Positions 34,499 to 48,854 of a stretch of 64,000 bases of DNA are shown piece by piece. Origin of the DNA: Candidatus Omnitrophota bacterium (lineage in GTDB: Bacteria > Omnitrophota > Gorgyraeia > Zapsychrales > Fredricksoniimonadaceae); NCBI GenBank assembly GCA_021731625.1, contig JAKFXC010000060.1:794-64793 (forward strand). The letters run 5' to 3'. Position numbers and translations under genes: made by a program. The notes under the pieces are model-generated. The model was not told where the DNA came from. It did no database searches and saw nothing but the letters and a program-made list of their open reading frames with translations. Position 1 is the first letter of the stretch. Each line of letters begins with the position of its first letter.

Positions 34499-36064
34499 AT
34501 GCAAAATGTTTCTTTTGTATTGATTGCCGTTTTCGTCGGCATTGTGTGTGTTATTGCCGGATTTTTCTTAAACCGGATTTTGGGCGGCAAACGGAGCCGG
34601 CAGGCCCAACAAGGCGCTGCGGAAATCCGTGAACTGGCCCAGAGAGAAGCGGAAACCATCCGCAAAGAAGCAGACCTCCAGGCGAAGGACTTGCTGATTA
34701 AACTCCGCCAGGATTTTGAGAACCAGATCAAAGAGCGGCGGGACGAAATCACCAATGCCGAAAAACGCATTGTGCAGCGTGAGGAAAATTTAGACAAACG
34801 GGTGGATTTGCTGGAGAAAAAAGAAAAAGATCTGGCCAGCCGCTTGGAAGTCCTGCGCGACGGAGAGGCCAAGAATAAAGAAAAAGAAGAGACCTTGACG
34901 AAATTGGTGACCGAAGAAAAGGCCCGCTTGCAGTCTATTGCGAATCTGTCCCAGGACGAGGCCCGCAAAGTTCTATTGGCTCGGGTGGACGAGGACCTTA
35001 AGACCGAGAAGTCGGTGCGCATCCGCCAGATGAATGAAGAGATCAAGGAAGTTTCCGACAAAAAGGCGCGGGAGATTATCAGCACCGCGATCCAGCGCTG
35101 CGCCTCAGACCACACTGCTGAGACGACCATTTCCGTGGTGCCGCTGCCGTCCGACGAGATGAAAGGCCGCATCATCGGCCGCGAAGGCCGCAACATCCGC
35201 GCCCTGGAGCAGGCCACTGGGGTCGACATCATCATCGACGACACACCGGAGGCAGTGACCATTTCGGGGTTTGACATGGTGCGCCGTGAGACCGCCCGCA
35301 TGGCCCTGGAAGCGCTCATTGTTGACGGCCGTATCCATCCTGGCCGCATCGAGGAGGTGGTGGAGAAGGCCAAAGGAGATTTAGAGAAGAAAATGAAGGA
35401 AGAGGGGGAACATGCGGCCATGGAGCTTGGCATCCACGGCATGCACCCGGAACTCATCAAACTGGTGGGGCGTTTGCGTTACCGCACTTCGTTTGGGCAA
35501 AATGGACTAAACCACTCAGTGGAAGTCGCCAAATTGATGGGCATCATGGCCTACCAATTGAATGTCGACGTGAAGGCCGCCAAGCGGGCGGGCCTGTTGC
35601 ATGACATCGGCAAAGTGGTTTCATCGGATGTGGAGGAAGGTACTCATGCCATTGTCGGCGGACGGCTTTGCCGCAAATACGGTGAGGCCGAAGACGTGGC
35701 CTATGCTGTAGAAAGCCACCACGGGGAAGTGGAAATGAACACCCTCTACGGAATTTTAGTTTCTGCGGCGGACGCCATCAGCGCGGCCAGGCCAGGGGCC
35801 CGGGCGGAGTCAATGGAAACCTACATCAAGCGATTGGAAAATTTGGAAAAGATTTCCAATTCGTTTAAGGGTGTTGAGAAAAGTTATGCCTTGCAGGCCG
35901 GCCGGGAGATTAGGATCATGGTGATGCCCGATAAAGTCAATGATGATGAGGCGGTCGTCATGGCGAGGGACATCCGCAAGAAAATTGAAGAAGAAATGGA
36001 ATATCCCGGGCATATCAAAGTCATGGTGGTCCGCGAAACCCGCGCCGTGGAGTATGCTAAATAG
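34499..36064 (+). CDS. rny: Ribonuclease Y
   Basis: N-terminal TM helix, coiled coil, KH domain ([26 protein letters not shown]), HD domain (LLHDIGKV...HH). Confidence 0.9.
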
Positions 36065-36131
36065 GGGCCAGCCCCCTATTTTTTATATAGTTAACTTGCT
36101 TAAAAATAGGGGGCTGGCCCCTATTTAGCAG
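36061..36131. terminator. Paired inverted copies of the AAATAGGGGCCAGCCCCCTATTT hairpin forming a 19-bp-stem bidirectional terminator after rny
   Basis: AAATAGGGGCCAGCCCCCTATTTTTT at 36061-36086 and its reverse complement AAAAATAGGGGGCTGGCCCCTATTT at 36107-36131. T-run follows the first hairpin. Confidence 0.65.
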
Positions 36132-36149
36132 GGGAGTTGTTCCTACTTT

Positions 36150-36932
36150 ATGAAGGTCCTATGCATAGGCGATATCGTAGGCCGGCCGGGACGGGAAATC
36201 CTGGCCAAATCCTTGGGTCCGTTCAAGGAGCAGCACCGCGTTGACTTTGTCATTGCCAACGGCGAGAATGCGGCCGGTGGCAGCGGCATCCTTCCCAAAC
36301 AGGCGGAGGAGATTTATGCCTGCGGGGTCGATGTCATCACCCTCGGTGACCATGTCTGGGACAAGTCGGACATTTACGCGTATCTTAATGAGCAGGCCCG
36401 CATTGTCCGGCCGATCAATTTTCCGGAAGGGGTGCCGGGCAAGGGCTGGGCGATTTCCATTGCCGGAAACCAGGTCAAAATCGGCGTAATAAACCTTCTG
36501 GGCCGTACTTTTATGCGCTACAATGTCAATTGTCCGTTCCGCGCCTTGGACGCGGCCGTCGAGCACATCAAAAAAGAAACGCCGGTGATTTTTGTGGACA
36601 TGCACGCCGAAACCACCAGTGAGAAAGTCGCCATGGGCCATTACGCCGATGGGAAAGTTTCTTGCGTGTTCGGCACCCACACGCACGTCCAAACCGCTGA
36701 CGATAAGATTTTACCGCAGGGCACGGCATACATCACCGACCTGGGCATGAGCGGCCCGCACAACTCCGTCATCGGCCAAAACAAAGAAAAAATCATCCAG
36801 CGTTTCCTGACTTGCATGCCCCACAAATTTGAAGTGGCCGAGGGAGACAATATTTTAAACGGCATTTTAGTGGACGTTGACGAAGACACCGGCAAATCCC
36901 GTCACATCACACGCATCCAGCAAAAGGAGTAA
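36150..36932 (+). CDS. ymdB: YmdB-family 2',3'-cyclic-nucleotide 2'-phosphodiesterase (TIGR00282 metallophosphoesterase)
   Basis: MKVLCIGDIVGRPGR...ANGENAAGG...GDHVWDK motifs. Conserved rny-ymdB pairing. Confidence 0.85.
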   Translation: MKVLCIGDIVGRPGREILAKSLGPFKEQHRVDFVIANGENAAGGSGILPKQAEEIYACGVDVITLGDHVWDKSDIYAYLNEQARIVRPINFPEGVPGKGWAISIAGNQVKIGVINLLGRTFMRYNVNCPFRALDAAVEHIKKETPVIFVDMHAETTSEKVAMGHYADGKVSCVFGTHTHVQTADDKILPQGTAYITDLGMSGPHNSVIGQNKEKIIQRFLTCMPHKFEVAEGDNILNGILVDVDEDTGKSRHITRIQQKE

Positions 36933-36936
36933 CCCT

Positions 36937-37329
36937 ATGGCCTGGCAAGGCAACGACCGCCGCAAATTTCCCCGTATCCTCTATCCGTGCATGATCAAGA
37001 TTTTTTCGAGCGAACAAGGACAGGAAGTGATGTTGACGCACACGGAGAACGTCGGCGTGGGAGGGTGCTGCATCATTGTTAAGAAAGCCATTCAACTCTT
37101 TAGCCCGGTCTCCGTGGAGCTGGATTTAATTGACGAGGCCGACCATATCCGGGCCGAAGGCAAGGTGGTCTGGTCGGTGCGGCGTAAGGCGGTGGAATCG
37201 TTTAAACCCTCTTTTTATGACATCGGCATCGAATTTGCCAACGTCTCAGAACAAAATCAAAAAAGGCTGGAGAAGGCCATGAATATATTCCTCAAAAAAG
37301 GATATAAGACGCTTCGCCCGGTGTATTGA
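36937..37329 (+). CDS. PilZ domain protein (c-di-GMP binding)
   Basis: NDRRKFPRI (RxxxR) and ENVGVGGCCI (DxSxGG-like) motifs. Start MAWQGN at 36937. Confidence 0.65.
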   Translation: MAWQGNDRRKFPRILYPCMIKIFSSEQGQEVMLTHTENVGVGGCCIIVKKAIQLFSPVSVELDLIDEADHIRAEGKVVWSVRRKAVESFKPSFYDIGIEFANVSEQNQKRLEKAMNIFLKKGYKTLRPVY

Positions 37330-38615
37330 TTGGCATGGTCCGGGTCCGTTTTGCCCCGTCTCCGACGGGCTATCTGCACATCGGCGGCGCGCGCACCGCA
37401 CTCTTTAACTGGATGTACGCCAAAGCCCAGGGCGGCAAGTTTATCCTGCGCATTGAAGACACCGACAAGGCGCGTTCCAAATCCGAATTCCTCGACGAGA
37501 TCCTAGAGAGCATGGAATGGCTGGGCCTGACTTGGGACGAGTTTTACAAGCAAAGCGACCGCTTTGATCTGTACGCCCAGTATGCCCAAAAATTGCTGGA
37601 TGAGGGCAAGGCCTACAAGGACGACCAAGCTGTGCTGTTGACCATGCCGCAGAAGACGATCAAAATGTACGATTTGATCCGCGACGAGATCGTCGTTGAC
37701 ACCAAAGAGATCAAGGACCAGGTGCTGATCAAAAGCGACGGCTCGCCGACGTACAGCTTTGCCTGTGTCATCGACGATGCGTTGATGGAGATTTCCTGCG
37801 TCATCCGGGGCGAAGACCACATCTCTAATACGCCAAAACAAATTGTCATTTACGAAGCGCTTGGTTTTAAGCCGCCCAAATTTGCCCACCTGCCGCTCAT
37901 CCTCGACGATGAACGGGCCCGGCTGTCCAAACGCGCCGGTGCCGTGGCTGTCTCCGATTACCGCACCCAGGGCTTTTTGCCGGAAGCTGTCGTCAATTAC
38001 TTGATGCTCTTGGGATGGTCGCCGGGCAATAATCAGGAGAAGATCGCCCTGGCATCGGCGATTAAGAATTTTTCCATCAAAAAAATCAACAAAGCCGGCG
38101 CCGCGTTTTCGATGGACAAATTAAAGTGGCTTAACAGCCAGTACATTAAAGAGATAGACAGCGTGCGGTTGGCGGAGTTGATCAAACCCATGTTGGTGGC
38201 AAAATATGATGAGCGGACGGTGCAGTCTTACGATCTGGCTAAAATAGCCACGCTATACAAAGGTCGTATGGAGACTTTGGCAGATTTTTTGGATTGGACG
38301 GAATACATTTTCTCCGATCTGCTGAAGTTTGACCCTGAGGCCAGGGCCGCCCACCTGAGCAAGAATATGGGCAAGGAATTTACCCTCCTCGCTGAACACC
38401 TGAATGGTATACTTAATTTTGATGCCAAATCAGCGGAGGAGGCGTTTCGGGCGGTGGTGGCTGCTTTGGGCATTGATGCCGGGACGTTGGTGCACCCCGT
38501 GCGGGTGGCTTTAACCGGCCGCGCCGTCGGGCCAGGGCTTTTTGATACCATGGCGGTTTTGGGAAAAGACATCACGGTTGCGCGGTTACGGTCGACGTTT
38601 GCCAAAACACAATAA
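37326..38615 (+). CDS. gltX: Glutamate--tRNA ligase (short form, 429 aa)
   Basis: RFAPSPTGYLHIGGARTALFNW (HIGH), catalytic-core residues, KMSKS-like LSKRAG. Short C-terminal anticodon-binding region. Confidence 0.9.
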   Translation: MIGMVRVRFAPSPTGYLHIGGARTALFNWMYAKAQGGKFILRIEDTDKARSKSEFLDEILESMEWLGLTWDEFYKQSDRFDLYAQYAQKLLDEGKAYKDDQAVLLTMPQKTIKMYDLIRDEIVVDTKEIKDQVLIKSDGSPTYSFACVIDDALMEISCVIRGEDHISNTPKQIVIYEALGFKPPKFAHLPLILDDERARLSKRAGAVAVSDYRTQGFLPEAVVNYLMLLGWSPGNNQEKIALASAIKNFSIKKINKAGAAFSMDKLKWLNSQYIKEIDSVRLAELIKPMLVAKYDERTVQSYDLAKIATLYKGRMETLADFLDWTEYIFSDLLKFDPEARAAHLSKNMGKEFTLLAEHLNGILNFDAKSAEEAFRAVVAALGIDAGTLVHPVRVALTGRAVGPGLFDTMAVLGKDITVARLRSTFAKTQ

Positions 38616-39307: not shown

Positions 39308-39680
39308 CCCTGCCCTGATTTTTCTAGAATTGACAATAAGGTAGTCAGGACTGGGCAATATTTTTCTAGATGTTGTTCTTTTAGAATTGTGGAAATATTT
39401 GCCCTGCCCTGATTTTTCTAGAATTGACACTAAGGTAGTCAGGACTGGGCAATATTTTTCTAGATGTTGTTCTTTTAGAATTGTGGAAATATTTGCCCTG
39501 CCCTGATTTCTCTAGAATTGACACTAAGGTAGTCAGGACTGGGCAATATTTTTCTAGATGTTGTTCTTTTAGAATTGTGGGAATATTTGCCCTGCCCTTG
39601 CTTTTTAGAAGAAAAGCATAAGGAAGCAGGGACTAGGGCAAATTTTTCTTAAAGTAGTTCTTATAATTTTTTGGAAATTT
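39308..39680. repeat. Tandem repeat, 93-94-bp unit x about 3 plus a diverged proximal unit, directly upstream of tRNA-Gln
   Basis: Units start at 39308, 39401, 39495 and 39589 (GCCCTGCCCTGATTTTTCTAGAATTGACA...TCAGGACTGGGCAATATTTTTCTAGATG...). Each begins with a copy of the tRNA-Gln 5' acceptor sequence TGCCCTG. Shares the ATAAGGAAGCA and CCCTGATTTTTCTAGAA motifs with the tRNA-Cys and tRNA-Leu leaders. Confidence 0.85.
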
Positions 39681-39751
39681 GCCCTGTCGTCTAACGGTAG
39701 GACCCAAGATTCTGGATCTTGTTGTCTAGGTTCGAATCCTAGCGGGGCAAT
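39681..39751 (+). tRNA. tRNA-Gln (anticodon CUG), no encoded CCA
   Basis: U1-A72 acceptor TGCCCTG/CGGGGCA, anticodon stem CAAGA/TCTTG with loop TTCTGGA, T-arm CTAGGTTCGAATCCTAG. Confidence 0.8.
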
Positions 39752-39832
39752 TTTTAAACACAACCTCCTGTGATTAGATAAATTGCAGGAGCTTTTTTTT
39801 GACTTGACAGCCACAAGAGGCGTGTATACAAT

Positions 39833-40111
39833 TTGTATATACAAATGAACATAGAAAACATCTCATGGAATCCATTAAAAAACGAGCGCTTAAAGAAAAC
39901 GCGAGGCATTTCGTTTGAAGAAATTATTATCTCCAAATTGATCGATATACGTAAACATCTCAAAAAGGATACTCAGAGGATATTGATTTATAAATGTAGA
40001 GGTTATATTTGGGCCGTTCCGTTTGTCAAAATAGAGAGCGGGATATTTTTGAAAACCATCTATCCGAGTCGCAAATTTACAAAGATGTACAAAGAGGGAG
40101 GAATCTTATGA
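39833..40111 (+). CDS. brnT: BrnT-family (DUF497) type II toxin ribonuclease
   Basis: WNPLKNERLKKTRGISFEEII...ILIYKCRGYIWAVPFVKIESGIFLKTIYPSRK matches the BrnT pattern. Confidence 0.7.
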   Translation: MYIQMNIENISWNPLKNERLKKTRGISFEEIIISKLIDIRKHLKKDTQRILIYKCRGYIWAVPFVKIESGIFLKTIYPSRKFTKMYKEGGIL

Positions 40112-40356
40112 GAGTCATCAAATTAACAAGGGAAGAGCGTGAGATCGAAGAGAATATCGAAAAATTTGTCCCGGTGGATAAGAAAGAATTCGAAACCATC
40201 GTTCGAGCCTTGGAGGCCCGGAAGAAGGACGCCGTGTTAAATATTCGGGTCAGCAAGTATGACCTGGACAGCATAAAGCAAAAAGCAGCTCAGCTGGGAA
40301 TTCGATACCAGACGCTTATTTCTGAGATTTTGCACAGAGTAGCTCAGGCCTCATAA
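40108..40356 (+). CDS. brnA: BrnA-family antitoxin
   Basis: ATGA overlap with the brnT stop. C-terminal IRVSKYDLDSIKQKAAQLGIRYQTLISEILHRVA typical of BrnA. Confidence 0.7.
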   Translation: MRVIKLTREEREIEENIEKFVPVDKKEFETIVRALEARKKDAVLNIRVSKYDLDSIKQKAAQLGIRYQTLISEILHRVAQAS

Positions 40357-40476
40357 GCCAGTTGCGAAACTCGTCCAAATGAGGCAACCATACTAATCTC
40401 TTGATTTCCCCATCGAGAGATTATTCGGAAAAACACACTGCTTGACTAATGAATTTTTCAGTGTAAAACTATAATC

Positions 40477-40911
40477 ATGAAAAGGTTACATAAAAAGAAA
40501 ATCGGCGGATTTTTACCGATACCTCTTTTATTTGCAATCACTTTCTGTTGCTGCTTAGAGGAGAAAGTTTCTGCTGATGAAACCCGTTCAGATTTTTCCA
40601 TGGAACATCACCAAGAGTCCCATGAATTAGAGAAGTCTGATCAAGCCGAACACCAGGAGCATTCTCATGGGGATCAGGAATGTTCTTGCCCAAAGCATTT
40701 AAGTTTTCTTTTCTCACAATCATCCGCAGATATAATTTTTGATTCTACCGTCAGCCAAATGTTGGCCAAGAATTTTATGGTTGACTTTGGGTTTGATAAC
40801 ATTATTTTTCTTGCCTCATTATCAAATCACTCGCAGGGGCCACCCCTGTTAGATCATAGGGAGTACGTTTCTCTTCCCATCTATCTCAAAGTGTCCAACC
40901 TCCGTATTTAA
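40477..40911 (+). CDS. His-rich hypothetical protein (possible periplasmic metal-binding)
   Basis: N-terminal hydrophobic segment then HHQESHELEKSDQAEHQEHSHGDQECSCPKH His/Cys-rich stretch. In the copper-gene context. Confidence 0.35.
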   Translation: MKRLHKKKIGGFLPIPLLFAITFCCCLEEKVSADETRSDFSMEHHQESHELEKSDQAEHQEHSHGDQECSCPKHLSFLFSQSSADIIFDSTVSQMLAKNFMVDFGFDNIIFLASLSNHSQGPPLLDHREYVSLPIYLKVSNLRI

Positions 40912-41038
40912 TCAAATCTAAAAATTGACCTTAGATCTGAAAGGCCAAGAGTGTTTTCTTTTGGTCAAGGGAAGATTTAGGGGCCGGTATTTTTTGGTCA
41001 TTTAACTTAAACCATGTAACTAATCTAAGGAGAACAAA

Positions 41039-41407
41039 ATGACATCAAAATTAATCGCTTTAAGTTTAGCAGCTGTTTTGTCCTTGTCGTATTCCAATTA
41101 TGTCTTGGCTAATGAAGGTCAGGAACATCAAATGCCTGATGGAACTATGATGAAAAATAGCGATATGACTCAAGGCCAGATGAACCAAGAATCAACCAAA
41201 GCAGTCGACGTCGGCAATAAAATTTGTCCTGTCAGTGGTGAGAAAGTCCCTGCTCCCGGCGAAAAAAGCGAGATGGGTGAGGCTGTTAAATACATATACA
41301 ACGGCAAGATTTATAATCTTTGCTGCTTAATGTGCGTGAAGGATTTTAAGAAAAATCCTGAAAAATATAGTGCCATTGCCGAAAAGGAAATTAAAGAAGC
41401 CAAATAG
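41039..41407 (+). CDS. Periplasmic YHS-domain protein with Met-rich motifs (putative copper-binding)
   Basis: Signal peptide. Met-rich MPDGTMMKNSDMTQGQM. YHS/TRASH-like motif ICPVSGEKV...YNGKIYNLCCLMCVKDFKKNPEKY. Confidence 0.6.
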   Translation: MTSKLIALSLAAVLSLSYSNYVLANEGQEHQMPDGTMMKNSDMTQGQMNQESTKAVDVGNKICPVSGEKVPAPGEKSEMGEAVKYIYNGKIYNLCCLMCVKDFKKNPEKYSAIAEKEIKEAK

Positions 41408-41627
41408 CATAGAGGTGATATATGGAAAACACATTTGTACAAATGTTATATCCGATACACCCTAAACTCGTGCATTTCCCCATAGCGTTGATTGTCAGTG
41501 CTATGGGGATGCAGGGGCTTGGCCGCTCATCAAGGAGGAAGAATGGTTTATGAATTGTCATCGTCACGGCGAACAAGATTACTAAATACGACAAGGGTTT
41601 AAATGTCGTTAGAGAAGTCGAGCAAAA

Positions 41628-41772
41628 GATGGACATGGAAGGTATGAAGAAGATGATGAAAGATTGTCCGATGATGGGTAAAGGCATAATGGAAAACATG
41701 GGTGAGGATGCTGAAACAACAGCAGATAAGGCAGAGCCTGCAAAAGAAGTCGATCACGCCAATCATCACTGA
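41628..41772 (+). CDS. Small Met-rich peptide (47 aa), putative copper-binding
   Basis: MDMEGMKKMMKDCPMMGKGIMENMGEDAETTADKAEPAKEVDHANHH with MxxM/MMxK motifs. Followed by terminator hairpin GGGCGCAGGATATTATCCTGCGCCC plus T-run. Below the ORF-track cutoff. Confidence 0.3.
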
Positions 41773-41833
41773 TCCGTAAAGAAGCATAGGGCGCAGGATA
41801 TTATCCTGCGCCCAGCATTTTTTATATTATGAT

Positions 41834-42212
41834 GTGTATATGAAATTCTCCAAATTCGATAAAGAAATCTATATGGGCTTTTTGGCCATTACCGGAATTT
41901 TTCTATATTTGGTTTTACGTTTTTTATTAGGCGTTCCTGTAGGTCTGTCCAATTGGCCATTATTGATTACGTTGGCCTTAGGTGGCGTCCCATTGGTTTG
42001 GGACCTTTTGATCAAGCTTTCCAAGCGCTAATTCGGGTCCGATCTTGTCGCCGGGATTTCAATTATTACTTCGATTTGGTTAGGTGAATACCTGGCCGGG
42101 ACGTTAGTGGTACTGATGCTTTCCAAAGGGGAGGCTCTCGAAGGCTTTGCCGTACGACGCGCTTCTTCGGTATTGGCCGCATTTGACCCGCATTTGCTTA
42201 AAAGGAGCGTTT
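41834..42212 (+). pseudogene. N-terminal fragment of a heavy-metal P1B-type ATPase, interrupted by an in-frame TAA (42029-42031) and truncated at the start of the intact ATPase gene
   Basis: Same frame before and after the stop: ...[79 protein letters not shown]. These are the typical first TM helices and GEaLE region of CopA/CadA-type pumps. It ends where the full-length ATPase begins in another frame. Confidence 0.6.
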
Positions 42213-44492
42213 ATGGCCATTGATCCAATTTGTGGAATGACAGTTAAGGAAGATACTCCTTTTAAAGTAAAAAAGGAGGAGCAAGTTCATTATTTTTGTT
42301 CGGCTCATTGTAAGGATAAATTTTTGTCGACTACTCCGGTCAGTGAGAAGTCCAAATCAATGTCTTCAGCAAAGCTAATTTATACCTGCCCCATGCATCC
42401 TGAAATTAGGCAAGATCATCCCGGCGACTGTCCGAAATGCGGCATGCATTTGGAGCCGTTAAATCCAACCGGCGAAGAAAACGAAGATCAACAAGAAACT
42501 CGATCCTTGTCATTGAAATTTTGGGTTGGCTTTGCGTTTGCTGTCCCTCTCGTATTGCTCGTTGTGGGTGAAATGATCCCATCTTTTAATATCGATTCCG
42601 TTATTCCACACCGGCTCATTCCTTTTATTCAATTTATATTGGCAACCCCAATCGTCTTATGGGCGGGAGGCATGTTCTTTGTAAAAGGCTGGATGTCTTT
42701 GATTAACCGAAATCTGAACATGTTTACTTTAATTGCCCTTGGTGTTGGCGCAGCGTATGGTTATAGTACAATAGCAACTTTCTTCCCTCATATTTTTCCG
42801 GATTCATTGAAGAAAATGGAAAAAGTAGATTTGTATTTTGAAGCAGCGGCGGTTATCACGGTATTAATCATTTTGGGGCAGTTGTTGGAAGCACAAGCAC
42901 GAAGCCAAACGGGGAAAGCCATTAAAGCACTTCTTGGATTGGCCGCAAAGAATGCGCACCTTGTTCGGAATGGCGTAGAAGAGGACGTTGAGATTGGTTC
43001 TGTCCAAGAAGGCGATATCTTACGCGTCCGGCCGGGAGAAAAAATTCCATTAGACGGAATTATTATTGAAGGAAAGAGCAGTGTTGATGAATCCATGATA
43101 TCCGGGGAGCCTATGCCAGTCGAAAAAAATACTGGTGATCGTGTCATTGGCGCAACGGTTAACCAAACCGGCGCATTTATGATGAGGACAGAAAAAGTGG
43201 GGGCAGAAACATTGCTTTCTCAAATCGTTCACATGGTTGCCGAAGCTCAACGCAGTCGTGCACCTATTCAAAAATTGGCGGATACGATTTCCGGCTATTT
43301 TGTCCCCATTGTGGTTTTGATTTCCGTGGTAACGTTTATCATCTGGGCCAATTGGGGGCCGGAGCCGAGATTGGTGTATGCCATTGTCAATGCGATTGCC
43401 GTTTTGATTATCGCTTGTCCATGTGCGTTAGGGTTGGCCACGCCCATGTCCATCATGGTCGGTGTTGGCCGGGGCGCACAGGCAGGAATTTTGATTAAAA
43501 ATGCTGAAGCTATTGAGAAATCAGAGAAAATCACTCATCTTCTGACGGACAAGACTGGCACATTAACGGAAGGTAAGCCCAAAGTGACTGCCTATATTCC
43601 GAACGAAGGATGGAATGAACAATCATTGCTTGGTGTTGCAGCTTCGATTGAACAAAGTAGCGAACACCCTTTGGCAAGAGCGGTGATAGATTATGCTAAA
43701 GAAAAGAATGCAAAGATTGAATCTGTGCAGGATTTTGAGTCCGTTACGGGCGGTGGCATAAAGGGAAAGCTCAATGGACAGAGAATTATTCTAGGTAAAC
43801 AAAAATTTCTCGAAGATCAAAAGATCATCCTTCCCGAGAATCTAAAAAAAGAGTCTGTTCAATTGCAGGCAAAGGCGCAGACAGTTGTATGGGTTGCGTC
43901 AGAACAAAAGATTGCAGGCATCCTCGGCATTTCTGATCCTATTAAGAAGACCGCTCCTCAAGCGATTCAAGACCTTCATAACATGGGCATCAAAGTGATT
44001 ATGTTGACGGGAGATAATCGCAAGACGGCTGAAGCCATTGCTAGAGAATTGGGAATTGATGATGTTCGCGCTGAATTAGAGCCGAAAAGCAAACAAGAGA
44101 TCGTCAAACAGTTTAAAAGTCAAGGCGCCATTGTGATGATGGCAGGAGATGGTATTAACGATGCCCCTGCTTTGGCGCAAGCGGAAGTTGGGGTAGCGAT
44201 GGGGACAGGAACAGATGTGGCGATTGAAAGCGCCGGGATCACTTTAGTCAAAGGCGATCTCAATGGCATCGTAAAAGCACTTCGTCTAAGCCGGGCAGTG
44301 ATGAAAAATATCCGTCAGAATCTCTTCTTTGCTTTTATTTATAATATGCTGGGTGTGCCTATTGCTGCTGGAATTTTATATCCCTTCTTCGGGATACTAT
44401 TGAGTCCGGTTATTGCCGGTGCGGCGATGGCGTTTAGTTCGGTCAATGTTATTGGAAATTCTTTAAGATTACGTGGAGTAAAACTAAGCTAA
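42213..44492 (+). CDS. copA: Copper(I)/silver-translocating P1B-type ATPase with N-terminal YHS/TRASH and CxxC metal-binding segments
   Basis: [11 protein letters not shown]...[12 protein letters not shown] (YHS), [29 protein letters not shown] motif ([13 protein letters not shown]), [22 protein letters not shown] at 42203. Confidence 0.9.
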
Positions 44493-44531
44493 TAGGGAAT
44501 CGGCCCGTTCCTTCATAAACAGGATTGACGT

Positions 44532-45047
44532 ATGCACCGCAATATAAAGATGCTTTTGACATGTTCTATTTTAATTCACGGAGGGATTAATTTACTTGCC
44601 CCTATTTACGCCATTTTCATTAAGAATATCGGCGGTACATTATTGGATGCTTCGGTCACGGTCGGATTTTACGCAGTCTTAAAAGGCATCCTTTATTTTG
44701 TTCTTAGAAATTTGAAAGAAAGTAAGTTCAGCCGAAAGCTTATGATTGCGTTTGGATATTTTATGTTTTTTATGGGTTATGTCATGTATATGTTCGCCTC
44801 CAATGTTTATCACGTTTTAGTCATTCAAGGCCTCTTGGCTTTTGGAGAGGTGGTGATCAATCCGTCGTGGAGTGCCGTTATTGCCAATGCCCTAACAAAA
44901 GGTAAGGAGCGGAGTATTTATTCCGACTTTTATGGCTACCGGTCTATTGCTGAAGGTGGAGCTGCCATTTTGGGAGGAATCCTAGCCACTCAATTAGGAT
45001 TTAACGTGTTGTTTGGTCTTATGGCTGGGTTTGCGTTGGGGGGCTAG
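44532..45047 (+). CDS. Six-TM membrane protein resembling half of an MFS transporter (probably truncated)
   Basis: 171 aa, hydrophobic throughout. The gene ends about 95 nt before the island-boundary repeat. Confidence 0.4.
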   Translation: MHRNIKMLLTCSILIHGGINLLAPIYAIFIKNIGGTLLDASVTVGFYAVLKGILYFVLRNLKESKFSRKLMIAFGYFMFFMGYVMYMFASNVYHVLVIQGLLAFGEVVINPSWSAVIANALTKGKERSIYSDFYGYRSIAEGGAAILGGILATQLGFNVLFGLMAGFALGG

Positions 45048-45142
45048 TATTCTGTCATTATTTTTAGAGAAATCTTAAGTAGGAAGGGGAGCCTGGGTTC
45101 CCCTGATGGGGAGCGAGACCGAACGCAGTGAGGCGAGCGACA

Positions 45143-45166
45143 GGTTCGAATCCTAGCGGGGCAATT
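45143..45166 (+). repeat. 24-bp direct repeat of the tRNA-Gln 3' end (GGTTCGAATCCTAGCGGGGCAATT), putative attR of an integrated island
   Basis: Identical to 39730-39753 (T-arm through acceptor end of tRNA-Gln plus 2 nt). Confidence 0.7.
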
Positions 45167-45242
45167 CTGTTCAAATCGAACATAATGGACGTATTGACTA
45201 TTATGTCTAAATAGGGTATACTTGCGTAAGGAGGTGAGACGA

Positions 45243-45482
45243 ATGACAAAGACAACAGCTACAGAAATGAAAAATCATTTTGGCCAATATCTGGAAGGGG
45301 CTATCTCCGAACCGGTGATCATTGAAAAGTCAGGCCGTTCGGTTGTGGTCATGCTTTCCATTAAGGAGTATGAACGGCTTGTAGCCTTAGACGATGCTCA
45401 TTGGGCTCAGAAGGCTCTTAAGGCAGAGAAAGCGGGGTATATTGGACAGAAAGAATCCTCTAAATTTTTAAGGTCTAAATAG
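45243..45482 (+). CDS. Phd/YefM-family antitoxin
   Basis: MTKTTATEMKNHFGQYLEGAISEPVIIEKSGRSVVVMLSIKEYERL matches the YefM pattern. AGGAGGTGA RBS. Confidence 0.75.
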   Translation: MTKTTATEMKNHFGQYLEGAISEPVIIEKSGRSVVVMLSIKEYERLVALDDAHWAQKALKAEKAGYIGQKESSKFLRSK

Positions 45483-45485
45483 CGC

Positions 45486-45752
45486 ATGCTTTCCCTTGAT
45501 CTTACTCATCAGGCCAAGGATTTCTTAGATCAACTAGATTCCAAGCGATTTCGTCAGGTTGTTAAAAAGATTTTCACTTTAATGGAAAATTCTCGGCCCC
45601 TGGATTCAAAGGCCCTGCAAGGACATCTATTCTGGCGTGCCGATATTGGAGAATATCGGATTATTTACCGTGTTGAAGAGAATTGTTTGAAAGTGGCGCT
45701 GGTAGACAAGCGCAATGACGACGAAGTTTATAAAAAATTAAGACGCATGTAA
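45486..45752 (+). CDS. RelE/ParE-family type II toxin
   Basis: LQGHLFWRADIGEYRIIYRVEENCLKVALVDKRNDDEVYKK matches the RelE/ParE C-terminal pattern. Immediately follows the antitoxin. Confidence 0.75.
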   Translation: MLSLDLTHQAKDFLDQLDSKRFRQVVKKIFTLMENSRPLDSKALQGHLFWRADIGEYRIIYRVEENCLKVALVDKRNDDEVYKKLRRM

Positions 45753-45771
45753 TCGAAAATAAGCCAACGTC

Positions 45772-46014
45772 ATGGTTTTTGAAATCCGCAGGGCTAAAAA
45801 TGGCTATATTCTAAAAGTCGTTAACACAGAAAATGTTGCGACTGAAGCAGAAGAAATTGTTTATCAGGAGAAATACGATGATGAGGTCGAATGTTTCGCT
45901 GAGTTTCTGAGATATTTGAACGATGAATACGGGCCATCCACTAGCCGTTATTCTGAAAAACGGATTCATATAAGCGTGTGCCCGGGGGATAAGTTTAATG
46001 AACCGGCTTCATAG
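45772..46014 (+). CDS. Hypothetical protein (80 aa)
   Basis: ORF only, no recognisable motif. The recurring 3' motif lies 70 nt downstream. Confidence 0.35.
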   Translation: MVFEIRRAKNGYILKVVNTENVATEAEEIVYQEKYDDEVECFAEFLRYLNDEYGPSTSRYSEKRIHISVCPGDKFNEPAS

Positions 46015-46282
46015 CTGTCGCTTTGACTTTATGTGCCCCGCTCAGTGTTTTTGTTATTTTTCTAAAGGTCGAAATTCTGCATAAAGCCAGTTCGTCCAAA
46101 CGGGGAACCACTGACGGTCTGGAGCCCGAATGTTTAAATTCTCTCAGTTACTGATGTGTTTTCTTGTTATCAGTTCGGTTTTCTTGTCACTTGCCTTAAA
46201 AGGCATTTCCAGCTCCTTAAAATCGAGAGCAGCGTCACTATTACTCCTATTGCTATGAGGTTTAGTATTTGTCTTTTACTAT

Positions 46283-46510
46283 TTGATAGGAGAAGCAGAT
46301 TGGCAATATATGGGGACAGGCTGGGACCACTTCTATGAGCAGATATTTTATAGAATTGGTTTTGTAGCGGCAAGTGGTGCCAGTTTGGCAGTATTAGGAT
46401 ATTTGCTCAAAATTCGGCAAAATAAAAACAATATCGTTCTTGTGATTTCATCGATCGTTGTTACTTTATTTGCAATCCTCCTGCTATGGTTTAACGTCCG
46501 AAGCCCGTAG
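46283..46510 (+). CDS. Small hypothetical membrane protein (two predicted TM helices)
   Basis: ORF with two hydrophobic stretches. AT-rich context. Confidence 0.3.
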   Translation: MIGEADWQYMGTGWDHFYEQIFYRIGFVAASGASLAVLGYLLKIRQNKNNIVLVISSIVVTLFAILLLWFNVRSP

Positions 46511-46576
46511 TTTACCTTAGGTGTAAAAACTCGCAACTGCTTATCAATATTATAGTTGTGTATTTTTTATGTCAAT

Positions 46577-46639
46577 TTGATATTTTACCGGGAATCCCGG
46601 TAAAATTAGCTTGATTTTTACCGGGATTCCCGGTAGAAT
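46577..46639 (+). promoter_or_regulatory. Tandem promoters, each with a 17-bp palindromic operator in the spacer, immediately upstream of the GHKL-ATPase gene
   Basis: P1: TTGATA (46577-82), 18-bp spacer holding TACCGGGAATCCCGGTA (46586-46602), TAAAAT (46601-06). P2: TTGATT (46611-16), 17-bp spacer holding TACCGGGATTCCCGGTA (46619-46635), TAGAAT (46634-39). The ATG at 46646 lies about 7 nt after the P2 -10 element (a possibly leaderless transcript). Confidence 0.6.
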
Positions 46640-46645
46640 TTAACT

Positions 46646-47599
46646 ATGAAAATACACGTACCAAATAGCGCATTTCTTGGCAATTTAGATCCTTTTTTGA
46701 AAGGGTTTGATCCTACGGATCCCCATTCGCTGCATGTAACCTTAAATCCCAAGTGGACGTCAGTGCACCCCCTTGTGCTATCTATGATCGGTTCCCTTGG
46801 GTTAACTATTAAACCTGAAAATATCCATATTGATAAATTAGTGGCAAGATCAAGCCACTACTTGGTTAGAATGGGACTATATAAATTACTTAATATTTCT
46901 TGCGGTACAGTTATACAGGAGCATGCCCCTGAAGGAAGATTTATTCCACTTAAACAGGTTCGCACATCAGATGAGTTGGCCGAGTTCATTACTGAAATGA
47001 TACCGCTTCTTCATTCAGATCCTGAACAATCTAAAACAATTGGATACATAATTAGTGAACTTGGGAGAAATGTTCTTGAACATTCTGTATCAGAAAATGG
47101 GGCTATCCTGTGCGCCCAATTCTATGCCAAAAGCAATACCATTCGTATAGGAATAGCCGACACGGGCGTAGGCATAAAAAAAACCATTAACCGGTCTCAC
47201 AACGCCATAACGGATTTGGAGGCCATTCAACTGGCATTATGGCCGGGGATTACTGGTACAACCAGCGCTCCTGGAGGGACTGCACAAAATGCCGGCGCTG
47301 GTTTATTTTTTATTAAGTCCATAGCAAATTTAAATAAAGATTTTTTTGTTATATATAGCGGGAAGGGTTTTTATAAACTGTTAGCTAAAAAGAGTAAGAA
47401 AGTACGGCTTAATGCGGATCCTTTTGAAGATCAACATAGCAAATCGGATCAATTGCCATATTGGCAAGGAACGTTAGTCGGAATAGACATAAGCCTTGAT
47501 CAGACGACGGAATATTCCAAACTGTTGGATGCCATTAGAGACATTTACTATGCATTAAGAAAAACTAAGAAATCACATAAGAGAGCAAAATTCATATGA
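46646..47599 (+). CDS. GHKL/HATPase_c-domain protein (RsbW-like serine-kinase fold) with an uncharacterised 110-aa N-terminal domain
   Basis: N box ELGRNVLEHS, G1 box IADTGVGI, G2 box GAGLFFIK. 317 aa. No sensor-kinase dimerisation/H-box domain. Confidence 0.7.
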   Translation: MKIHVPNSAFLGNLDPFLKGFDPTDPHSLHVTLNPKWTSVHPLVLSMIGSLGLTIKPENIHIDKLVARSSHYLVRMGLYKLLNISCGTVIQEHAPEGRFIPLKQVRTSDELAEFITEMIPLLHSDPEQSKTIGYIISELGRNVLEHSVSENGAILCAQFYAKSNTIRIGIADTGVGIKKTINRSHNAITDLEAIQLALWPGITGTTSAPGGTAQNAGAGLFFIKSIANLNKDFFVIYSGKGFYKLLAKKSKKVRLNADPFEDQHSKSDQLPYWQGTLVGIDISLDQTTEYSKLLDAIRDIYYALRKTKKSHKRAKFI

Positions 47600-47913
47600 G
47601 AGAGATCAACATTTACGAAAAGATCGGCAATAAGGATTTCGCCGAGAATAAAGATATTGGCAAAGACATTCGCCTAGAAGAGATCATGCCCGAATTAGAG
47701 AAAAACAATGTGGTTATCTTAAATTTCGATAAAATAGACCGGGCATCACAATCTTTTATTCATTCGCTCATCAGCGATCCAATCCGACAATACGGGGACA
47801 ATGTTTTAGACATAATGTTATTCAAAAACTGTAATGATAGAGTTAAGGAAATGATTAAGATCGTTTTAGGTTATTTGCAGGATGCCATTGACAATAAGGA
47901 TGGCTTGTCGTAG
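47596..47913 (+). CDS. DUF4325-like (STAS-fold, anti-sigma-antagonist-like) small protein
   Basis: 105 aa, IYEKIGNKDFAENKDIGKDIRLEEIMPELEKNNVVILNFDKIDRASQSFIHSLISDPIRQYGDNVLDIMLFKNCNDRVKEMIKIVL. ATGA overlap with the upstream GHKL gene. Confidence 0.6.
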   Translation: MREINIYEKIGNKDFAENKDIGKDIRLEEIMPELEKNNVVILNFDKIDRASQSFIHSLISDPIRQYGDNVLDIMLFKNCNDRVKEMIKIVLGYLQDAIDNKDGLS

Positions 47914-48001
47914 TTCATAAGATGCCTATAAGAGGTTCAGTCTTTAGCCAGCTGTGAAACTCGTCCCAGACGGGACATCCAAAATAAGGTGCGAATTGCG
48001 C

Positions 48002-48547
48002 ATGAACCCCATAATACGCAGCGTAAGTATAGGCGCGTTGATGCTCATACTGTATTTTTATGAAGCTCAAATCCTTCACAGTGCGGATTTTGCCGATACC
48101 ATTCGCCGCGAGGCCCAAAAAATGTCTGAGGCTATGCGGAAAGGCGATTTTAACACCCTCATAGATTACGCTCTGCCAAAGGTCGTTCATATGGTCGGGA
48201 AAGATAAAGCCCTCGCACAAATGAGGCAGATGGACGCACAGATGAAGAAAGAGGGGTTCTTTTACGATTCTGCGACGATCGGCACGCCCGGCCAAGTCAG
48301 CGACATCAACGGAAAACTTTACGTCCTTATTCCAGAGACGGTCAAAATCAAGGCTCCCGGGGGCATGATCACAAAAGAAAGCCATTTGATGGCCATATCC
48401 GAGGACAAGGGAAAGCGCTGGTATTTTGTAGATACCGCCGGATTGGTGAATGAAGAAGTCTTCAAGGACACTCTCCCCGACGTCGTGGGAAGAATCGAAA
48501 TCCCAACACCCAAGCAGACAACTTTTACTCCCGACCCAAAGAAGTAA
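48002..48547 (+). CDS. Secreted hypothetical protein
   Basis: Start MNPIIRSVSIGALMLILYFYEAQI (signal peptide). No recognisable domain. The overlapping minus-strand ORF (47915-48385) is judged spurious. Confidence 0.5.
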   Translation: MNPIIRSVSIGALMLILYFYEAQILHSADFADTIRREAQKMSEAMRKGDFNTLIDYALPKVVHMVGKDKALAQMRQMDAQMKKEGFFYDSATIGTPGQVSDINGKLYVLIPETVKIKAPGGMITKESHLMAISEDKGKRWYFVDTAGLVNEEVFKDTLPDVVGRIEIPTPKQTTFTPDPKK

Positions 48548-48674
48548 TCAAAGAGCGCCGCAGGCATTTTCCGGAATACAACTAAATAGGATATAAGCAG
48601 TTACAGAATGATATAAAAAGAAACAAAAATCACTACTCAGTCTAGTACATTATGATATATAATGATACATAGTT

Positions 48675-48854
48675 ATGAGTAAGTTATTGCGCAAATTAGA
48701 GGACTATAGATTGGAAAATAAGATATCTCAGAGTAAACTTGCTGAGATGCTTGGGGTTACGTTTGTCACCGTCAACCGCTGGTTTAATAAAAAATTTGAG
48801 CCCAACCAGATCCAACGCCACCACATCAAGAAGCTGATCAAAAGCGAATCCTAG
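48675..48854 (+). CDS. Small XRE-family HTH transcriptional regulator (59 aa)
   Basis: MSKLLRKLEDYRLENKISQSKLAEMLGVTFVTVNRWFNKKFEPNQIQRHHIKKLIKSES with the canonical HTH_XRE core SQSKLAEMLGVTFVTVNRW. Below the ORF-track cutoff. Confidence 0.5.
   Translation: MSKLLRKLEDYRLENKISQSKLAEMLGVTFVTVNRWFNKKFEPNQIQRHHIKKLIKSES

Follow-up and report, generated by a model that had tools for sequence, protein, structure and literature searches.

The control systems of restriction-modification (R-M) operons that rely on C proteins and C-boxes are mobile cassettes with their own regulator and with tandem palindromic operators at their own promoter; C proteins are small helix-turn-helix (HTH) proteins, and the transcripts of their genes are leaderless. 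Type II toxin-antitoxin systems are mobile operons of two coupled genes with palindromic operators over the -35 and -10 elements, and partner-switching modules such as SpoIIAB/SpoIIAA and RsbW/RsbV pair a GHKL serine-kinase-like protein bearing N, G1 and G2 boxes with a small STAS-type partner. In LacI/TetR-style steric repression, the palindrome lies between or over the -35 and -10 elements, with an auxiliary second site nearby. Traits of all these systems meet at a locus in a 64,000-nucleotide stretch of a Candidatus Omnitrophota contig (JAKFXC010000060.1; hereafter the window, with positions counted from its first nucleotide), where two 17-bp palindromes precede a pair of coupled genes encoding a GHKL ATPase/kinase and a DUF4325 STAS-like protein. 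Comparative analysis of this locus makes it probable, in our judgement, that the palindromes are operators belonging to the gene pair itself, read by the N-terminal domain of the GHKL protein in a negative autoregulatory loop.

The two palindromes lie within hexamer pairs upstream of the GHKL gene, with centers at 46594 and 46627 and a separation of 33 bp, as the first-pass annotation of the window had described. The proximal operator, TACCGGGATTCCCGGTA (46619-46635, not assigned to a strand), occupies the spacer of a core sigma-70-type promoter on the plus strand (46611-46639), composed of TTGATT at 46611-46616, a 17-bp spacer and TAGAAT at 46634-46639, and its final TA is the first TA of the -10 hexamer. 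The distal operator, TACCGGGAATCCCGGTA (46586-46602, likewise without strand), forms the left edge of the conserved DNA and extends through flanking T and A runs into a perfect 23-bp palindrome (46583-46605). It is embedded in a promoter-like unit, TTGATA-18-TAAAAT, also on the plus strand (46577-46606; TTGATA at 46577-46582 and TAAAAT at 46601-46606). An independent consensus scan recovers both hexamer pairs, with 10/12 and 9/12 matches. The ATG start codon (46646-46648, plus strand), which is also the predicted transcription start, follows the -10 hexamer by 6 nt without a Shine-Dalgarno sequence, and an in-frame TAG at 46634-46636 means that the GHKL open reading frame (ORF) cannot begin further upstream. 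On the minus strand, just beyond the left boundary of the conserved DNA, a promoter-like TTGACA-17-TAATAT (46547-46575; 10/12 matches) is directed away from the gene pair, with no convincing gene downstream.

The first gene (46646-47599, plus strand) encodes a 317-aa protein with a basic C-terminal tail, identified as a GHKL (SpoIIAB-like) ATPase/kinase by a weak HATPase_c_2 match (E 7e-4), by its fold and by the invariant residues of its N, G1 and G2 boxes. The AlphaFold2 (AF2) model of the full-length protein, with a predicted local distance difference test (pLDDT) score of 82, contains a SpoIIAB-like GHKL core (Foldseek probability 1.0); residues E138, N142, D172, G174, G176, G217 and G219 are invariant among homologues, and the protein terminates in a strongly basic tail of 27 residues. 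No database record was found for this exact protein. The second gene (47596-47913, plus strand) encodes a 105-aa DUF4325 STAS-like protein (E 3.6e-9) that is identical to database protein P0121. The STAS-like proteins are acidic (median pI 5.35; net charge -5 for the window copy) and share the conserved motif QSF.H.LIS. The start of the STAS-like gene overlaps the GHKL stop codon by 4 nt (ATGA), an arrangement seen in nearly all homologous loci that indicates translational coupling of the two genes. Searches of both proteins with Pfam, NCBIfam and PADLOC returned the families HATPase_c_2 and DUF4325 only, apart from a partial PADLOC match to DrmA: model PDLC02567 of the DISARM system matches the window GHKL protein over residues 56-249 (positions 62-251, E 1e-12), which indicates that some DrmA proteins carry a homologous N-terminal module.

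Some 110 homologous loci were compared overall, with individual analyses using between 20 and 113 of them. A scan of one genome per species yielded 20 genome loci (~0.2 Mb), to which 80 metagenomic loci were added. The GHKL proteins of the genome loci share 53-91% identity with the window protein, and their hosts span Planctomycetales, Omnitrophota, several candidate phyla radiation (CPR) phyla, Gammaproteobacteria, Micrarchaeota, Woesearchaeota and Altiarchaeales. More broadly, the gene pair has thousands of relatives in metagenomes. When compared with the six closest relatives (L001, L002, L003, L004, L024 and L025), DNA homology with the window begins at 46556-46586, and in five of the six at 46581-46586, coinciding with the distal palindrome; it ends in all six at 47900-47918, at the stop codon of the STAS-like gene. 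Among ORFs of at least 60 aa, the GHKL and DUF4325 families alone are common to all 21 clustered loci, the other small ORF clusters being antisense ORFs within these two genes, and no conserved ORF of at least 25 aa was found in the 800-bp flanks of 83 loci. Since homology runs from the distal palindrome to the STAS-like stop codon and only two genes are shared, the unit can be delimited by sequence as a self-contained two-gene cassette of 1.33 kb (~46582-47913) with the palindrome pair as its left edge. The distribution of this unit points to a cassette shared across bacteria and archaea that has spread together with its DNA site.

Conservation of the palindromes was evaluated in the 130 bp upstream of homologues, a site being defined as a 17-mer with no more than four mismatches to the consensus. 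Directly upstream of the cassette, 95 of 103 loci have one or more full sites, bearing out the earlier proposal of an operator-like site in the core promoter, and 76 of the 166 sites are perfect. The core CCGGGA-W-TCCCGG is kept at 86-100% per position; at the center, 42% of sites have A and 56% have T, a mixture expected for a symmetric dimer site with an unread center. Half-site density reaches 24.9 per kb in the 160 bp upstream of the cassette versus 2.6 per kb elsewhere. The first-pass annotation had also considered that the palindrome might be a dispersed repeat unrelated to the operon. In the 64-kb window, TACCGGGAATCCCGGTA and TACCGGGATTCCCGGTA are the sole matches even with up to three mismatches permitted (chance expectation 0.14, with two matches reached in 1 of 100 shuffles), and exact ACCGGGAWTCCCGGT in the 20 genome loci is always located just upstream of the GHKL gene and never elsewhere. 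Judged by the window and these loci, the palindrome is not such a repeat.

The position of the sites is likewise constrained: measured from the start codon, the proximal center falls at -19 in 41 loci and between -18 and -23 in 60. Two features proposed earlier as elements of design did not survive the comparison. The distance between centers had been read in the window as three helical turns. Across the loci, 54 site pairs have centers 27-29 bp apart and 10, among them those of the window's subfamily and of L110, have a spacing of 32-33 bp; this offset of about half a turn between the classes argues against helical phasing as a conserved requirement. Nor do two promoters appear to be part of the layout, since most loci combine two operators with one TTGACA-17/18-TATAAT promoter. 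The distal -35 hexamer, TTGATA, is specific to the window, with no counterpart in L001 (TTTCAA), L002, L003, L024 or L025; the distal palindrome itself is kept in relatives. The distal promoter-like unit is probably a relic of a tandem promoter/operator duplication. Two further arrangements were observed: the promoter/operator unit is repeated three times in tandem at L005 (5870-6000), with a 33-bp unit and a site resembling the class C operators described below, and three canonical palindromes with a 28-bp period lie ~100 bp upstream of the gene at L073 and L074. Tandem duplication of the promoter/operator unit thus appears to be recurrent.

A sigma-70-type promoter scoring at least 9/12 was identified in 78 of 108 loci, with a spacer of 17-18 bp in 70 of these. 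The dominant layout consists of a palindrome, TTGACA, a 17-18 nt spacer containing the second palindrome, TATAAT, six nucleotides and ATG. The distance from the -10 hexamer to the start codon is 6 nt in 49 of the 78 loci and 7 nt in another 11, making 60 in all, so that the leaderless mRNA proposed earlier for the window stands, as a prediction, for most of the family. Approximately 16 loci, including those in Micrarchaeota (L006), Woesearchaeota (L013) and Altiarchaeales (L017), display instead an archaeal-type layout, in which a purine-rich stretch and then TTTATAAA, at about -30, come after a full palindrome, often with the half-site TTCCCGGTA directly before the ATG. This arrangement matches the geometry of an archaeal promoter with a B recognition element (BRE) and TATA box, and would make the start codon coincide with the position where transcription is expected to begin. 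The same operator stands in sigma-70 and TATA contexts, from which it follows that the basal promoter would have been replaced in keeping with the host. A leaderless mRNA is predicted for both the bacterial and the archaeal layouts and, as leaderless mRNAs are translated in bacteria and archaea, this would explain how the cassette can be expressed in both domains. Seven loci (L027, L030, L031, L032, L039, L042 and L056) have a GTG instead of an ATG start despite their leaderless geometry; a GTG start is unusual for leaderless translation in model bacteria.

The evidence on which protein reads the site comes from loci with divergent operators. Loci with the canonical operator were designated class A. 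Class B operators, composed of TACCCGTAGAGTGC, the -35 element and GCACTCTACGGGTA, are found in L018, L021-23, L104, L106 and L107, within a large, mostly CPR clade; class C operators (TACCGT-N4-ACGGTA) are found in L005, L108 and L110; and L014 carries a further variant, TACCGGGACTCCGGTA. All these inverted repeats occupy the same promoter position as the canonical operator. Conservation of at least 95% across 96 canonical loci defines a set of 102 GHKL columns. Within this set, G12 and N34 (codons 46679-46681 and 46745-46747 in the window) are the only ones altered in all three operator-variant lineages, compared with ~0.02 expected if changes were independent. With a looser criterion, columns 8, 12, 33, 34 and 71 discriminate between operator types, all of them within the first 100 residues of the protein, and no discriminating column was found in the GHKL core or in the STAS-like protein. 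This association was also used predictively: positions 12 and 34 were screened in the 120 closest homologues from the databases, and the four exceptions were fetched. Two of these, P0065 (K12/H34) and P0108 (A12/H34), have the class C operators TACCGTACATACGGTA and TACCGTGTTTACGGTA, as predicted beforehand. It is this covariation of G12 and N34 with the operators, with no STAS-like column behaving in the same way, that leads us to propose autorepression through the N-terminal domain of the GHKL protein (~residues 1-100; 46646-46945, plus strand) as the putative operator-recognition domain. Charge lends a further supporting detail, the STAS-like protein being acidic and the GHKL protein ending in a basic tail.

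This domain is predicted to adopt a beta-alpha-beta-alpha-beta-alpha-alpha fold (AF2 model, pLDDT 88.5), and a search of 1.84 billion 50%-identity clusters with its profile gives no more than 167 representatives, almost all of which are family members or fragments of them. A STAS-like identity for the domain, suggested by chains of the RsbV/RsbW complex among the full-length Foldseek matches, was rejected on the PDB and profile results for the isolated domain. Several points weigh against recognition of the operator by this domain and against its acting as a repressor. The domain yields no significant fold match in PDB (best E 0.2), no profile match and no Pfam hit, and is close to neutral in charge. 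The covariation signal stems from only three independent lineages, and the other two exceptions fetched from the database, P0111 (altered to H34 only) and P0088 (altered to W12 only), keep the canonical operator, indicating that a single substitution is insufficient to change the operator. DNA contacts could be made by a complex, by the basic tail or by the STAS-like protein, with residues 12 and 34 co-varying for other reasons. Finally, the location of the full site upstream of BRE/TATA in archaeal-type layouts could signify activation.

Two observations on individual loci bear on the operator classes. At L019 (5895-6000), canonical half-sites ACCGGGAAT and ATCCCGGTA are set 16-17 bp apart with the -35 element between them, an arrangement that occurs twice and is the same split layout seen in class B operators. 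The shared layout suggests that a separately tethered domain reads each half-site. L061 encodes a typical class A protein (G12/N34), yet the 118 bp available upstream (1-118) contain no recognizable operator and present a different GC-rich inverted repeat; a replaced promoter or a misassembled contig may account for this.

The same autoregulatory operators might be read by the other cassette protein, the DUF4325 STAS-like protein, either alone or in a GHKL-STAS complex in which the small protein contacts the bases in the manner of an antitoxin. The cassette never lacks its small second gene, whose translation is coupled to that of the first; operons of the toxin-antitoxin type usually employ the small partner as repressor; and the evidence for co-transfer, which applies to the cassette as a whole, fits this possibility equally well. 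Against it, the columns that separate operator classes fall in the GHKL N-terminal domain, five in all, and none in the STAS-like protein, which is moreover acidic and shows no hit to a DNA-binding family; we consider such a reader unlikely. A regulator encoded outside the cassette has far less to recommend it. The first-pass annotation had pointed to an XRE or a MarR protein as a candidate repressor, and the XRE gene (48675-48854) does encode a genuine HTH_3 protein 0.75 kb downstream of the cassette and is also found near the cassette in L001, a relative syntenic with the window over 34529-38563 and at a tRNA-Gln gene. Across 113 loci, however, L001 is the only one with an XRE homologue and none has a MarR homologue, while the operator is conserved in bacteria and archaea of many phyla and no gene beyond the two of the cassette is shared. 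Binding of the palindromes by such a host protein can be given next to no probability. Since no plausible factor is common to Planctomycetes, CPR bacteria and DPANN archaea, and no third gene is linked, one of the two cassette proteins, and not the neighboring XRE protein, almost certainly reads the site.

The palindromes might, alternatively, act as nucleic-acid structure or as a mobility site, that is, as a hairpin, a terminator or attenuator, a cruciform, or a recombination site at the cassette end. The region folds very stably as RNA (-40.8 kcal/mol, z -8.3), the same 17-mer constitutes a terminator stem in some viral contigs, and in five of the six closest relatives cassette homology starts at the distal palindrome or no more than a few bases from it. 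A terminator is nonetheless contradicted by the palindrome stems in the window, which run into A-runs with no T-run, and by a consensus scan of 46300-46800 that found no terminator-like site. A hairpin is hard to reconcile with a proximal site that in most loci lies upstream of the predicted transcription start, and would thus not be transcribed, or with half-sites that are split around the -35 element in class B and L019. Changes in the arms are one-sided in 116 cases and compensatory in only 8, which argues that selection acts on the operator sequence and not on a hairpin. Rfam gives only miRNA-hairpin matches, all far below gathering thresholds, and no matching palindrome was found at the right end of the cassette. 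We regard a purely structural or mobility function as very unlikely, even if recombination may be a second role of the palindrome, given that cassette homology begins there.

Returning to autoregulation through the GHKL N-terminal domain, from the observed conservation, layout, co-transfer and covariation we infer a mechanism that specifies binding, repression, the direction of regulation and the role of the partner. A GHKL dimer would bind each 8+1+8 palindrome symmetrically via its N-terminal domains and contact the inner bases through residues around 8/12, 33/34 and 71. With the proximal site overlying the spacer and the beginning of the -10 hexamer, and the distal site adjoining the -35 hexamer, occupancy of the operators would exclude RNA polymerase and result in low, self-limited expression. 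Transcription would begin at the A of the ATG, generating a leaderless mRNA from which the second gene would be translated through ATGA coupling. Expression of this kind would require neither a host regulator nor a match to the host Shine-Dalgarno system, fitting the occurrence of the cassette in bacteria and archaea. The STAS-like partner would presumably modulate the GHKL protein, and thereby repression; its conserved QSF.H.LIS motif may serve this purpose, whether the partner is phosphorylated or simply bound. In its most complete form, this model describes an expression unit that can be carried between domains of life. A DNA-binding domain not described before, joined to a GHKL ATPase/kinase, would read TACCGGGAWTCCCGGTA and thereby autoregulate a coupled operon with a leaderless mRNA; residues 12 and 34 would largely determine specificity, as the natural classes A, B and C with their matching operators suggest, and the arrangement would function unaltered with a sigma-70 or a TATA promoter. 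We advance this composite proposal tentatively, at a little short of an even chance.

In the window, the cassette is located in a stretch of low GC content (0.39-0.45 versus ~0.52 elsewhere) that follows a tRNA-Gln gene (39679-39751) and extends to ~48650. The stretch also contains a CopG-like ORF, a YHS-domain ORF, a copper P-type ATPase gene (42147-44492), a truncated major facilitator superfamily gene (44532-45047) and a Phd/ParE pair (45222-45752). The Planctomycetales locus L001 has the same tRNA and flanks, with merely ~1.3 kb between tRNA and cassette, and the region from the tRNA-Gln gene onward (39679-48650) looks like a variable island. A defense-island context was considered as a general rule and rejected: the 149 neighboring ORFs examined from 85 loci are mostly housekeeping, with no recurrent defense family, and single loci adjoin HsdR, an N6_N4 methylase, AbiEii or PycTM. 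Contigs classified as viral were also inspected. The 17-mer occurs there as 29 single sites, none of them near a GHKL or STAS-like homologue, and was set aside as irrelevant to the cassette; in the 12 loci examined in detail, most sites are terminator stems or fall within genes, Pro-Gly-rich coding stretches among them. A class B cassette (L021, L022 and L023 from IMG/VR; P0203), at 41% identity with the window protein, is carried by viral-classified contigs, its closest named relative being in Candidatus Saccharimonas, and PHROG family phrog_5816 consists of one protein fusing GHKL and DUF4325 parts.

The analysis turns an anonymous pair of "ATP-binding protein" and "STAS-like protein" genes into a defined regulatory unit with an exact operator, a predicted reader domain and predicted specificity residues. 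It also illustrates how a mobile gene pair may stay correctly expressed after transfer between bacteria and archaea, by bringing its own operator and probably its own repressor, dispensing with a ribosome-binding site and exchanging only the basal promoter. If the N-terminal domain does bind DNA, it would represent a new DNA-binding fold with at least three natural protein/operator pairs, useful for the design of orthogonal regulators.

Literature on DUF4325, on STAS-like proteins and on partner switching in connection with defense yielded no description of the cassette or its operator, and each of the systems it most resembles departs from it in some respect. Like C-protein control systems, the cassette is mobile, probably brings its own regulator, has tandem palindromic operators at its own promoter and is predicted to yield a leaderless transcript, but it contains neither an HTH protein nor R-M genes, its operator sequence is unrelated, and it occurs in both bacteria and archaea with the promoter type exchanged. 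Its resemblance to type II toxin-antitoxin operons, which extends to self-repression if the proposed mechanism holds, is offset by the absence of any known toxin or antitoxin family and of ribbon-helix-helix, HTH, AbrB or Phd domains, and by a specificity signal that resides in the large first protein and not in the small one. Unlike partner-switching modules, the cassette has no linked sigma factor or PP2C phosphatase, there being no third conserved gene; its GHKL protein carries an extra 100-residue N-terminal domain that co-varies with the DNA site; and it is also present in archaea, which lack sigma factors. Compared with LacI/TetR-style repression, the putative reader has no known DNA-binding fold and the operators are unphased, with spacing classes of 28 bp and 33 bp. 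Two elements are plausibly new among these systems: the reader domain, and a fixed operator around which the promoter type changes from one domain of life to the other.

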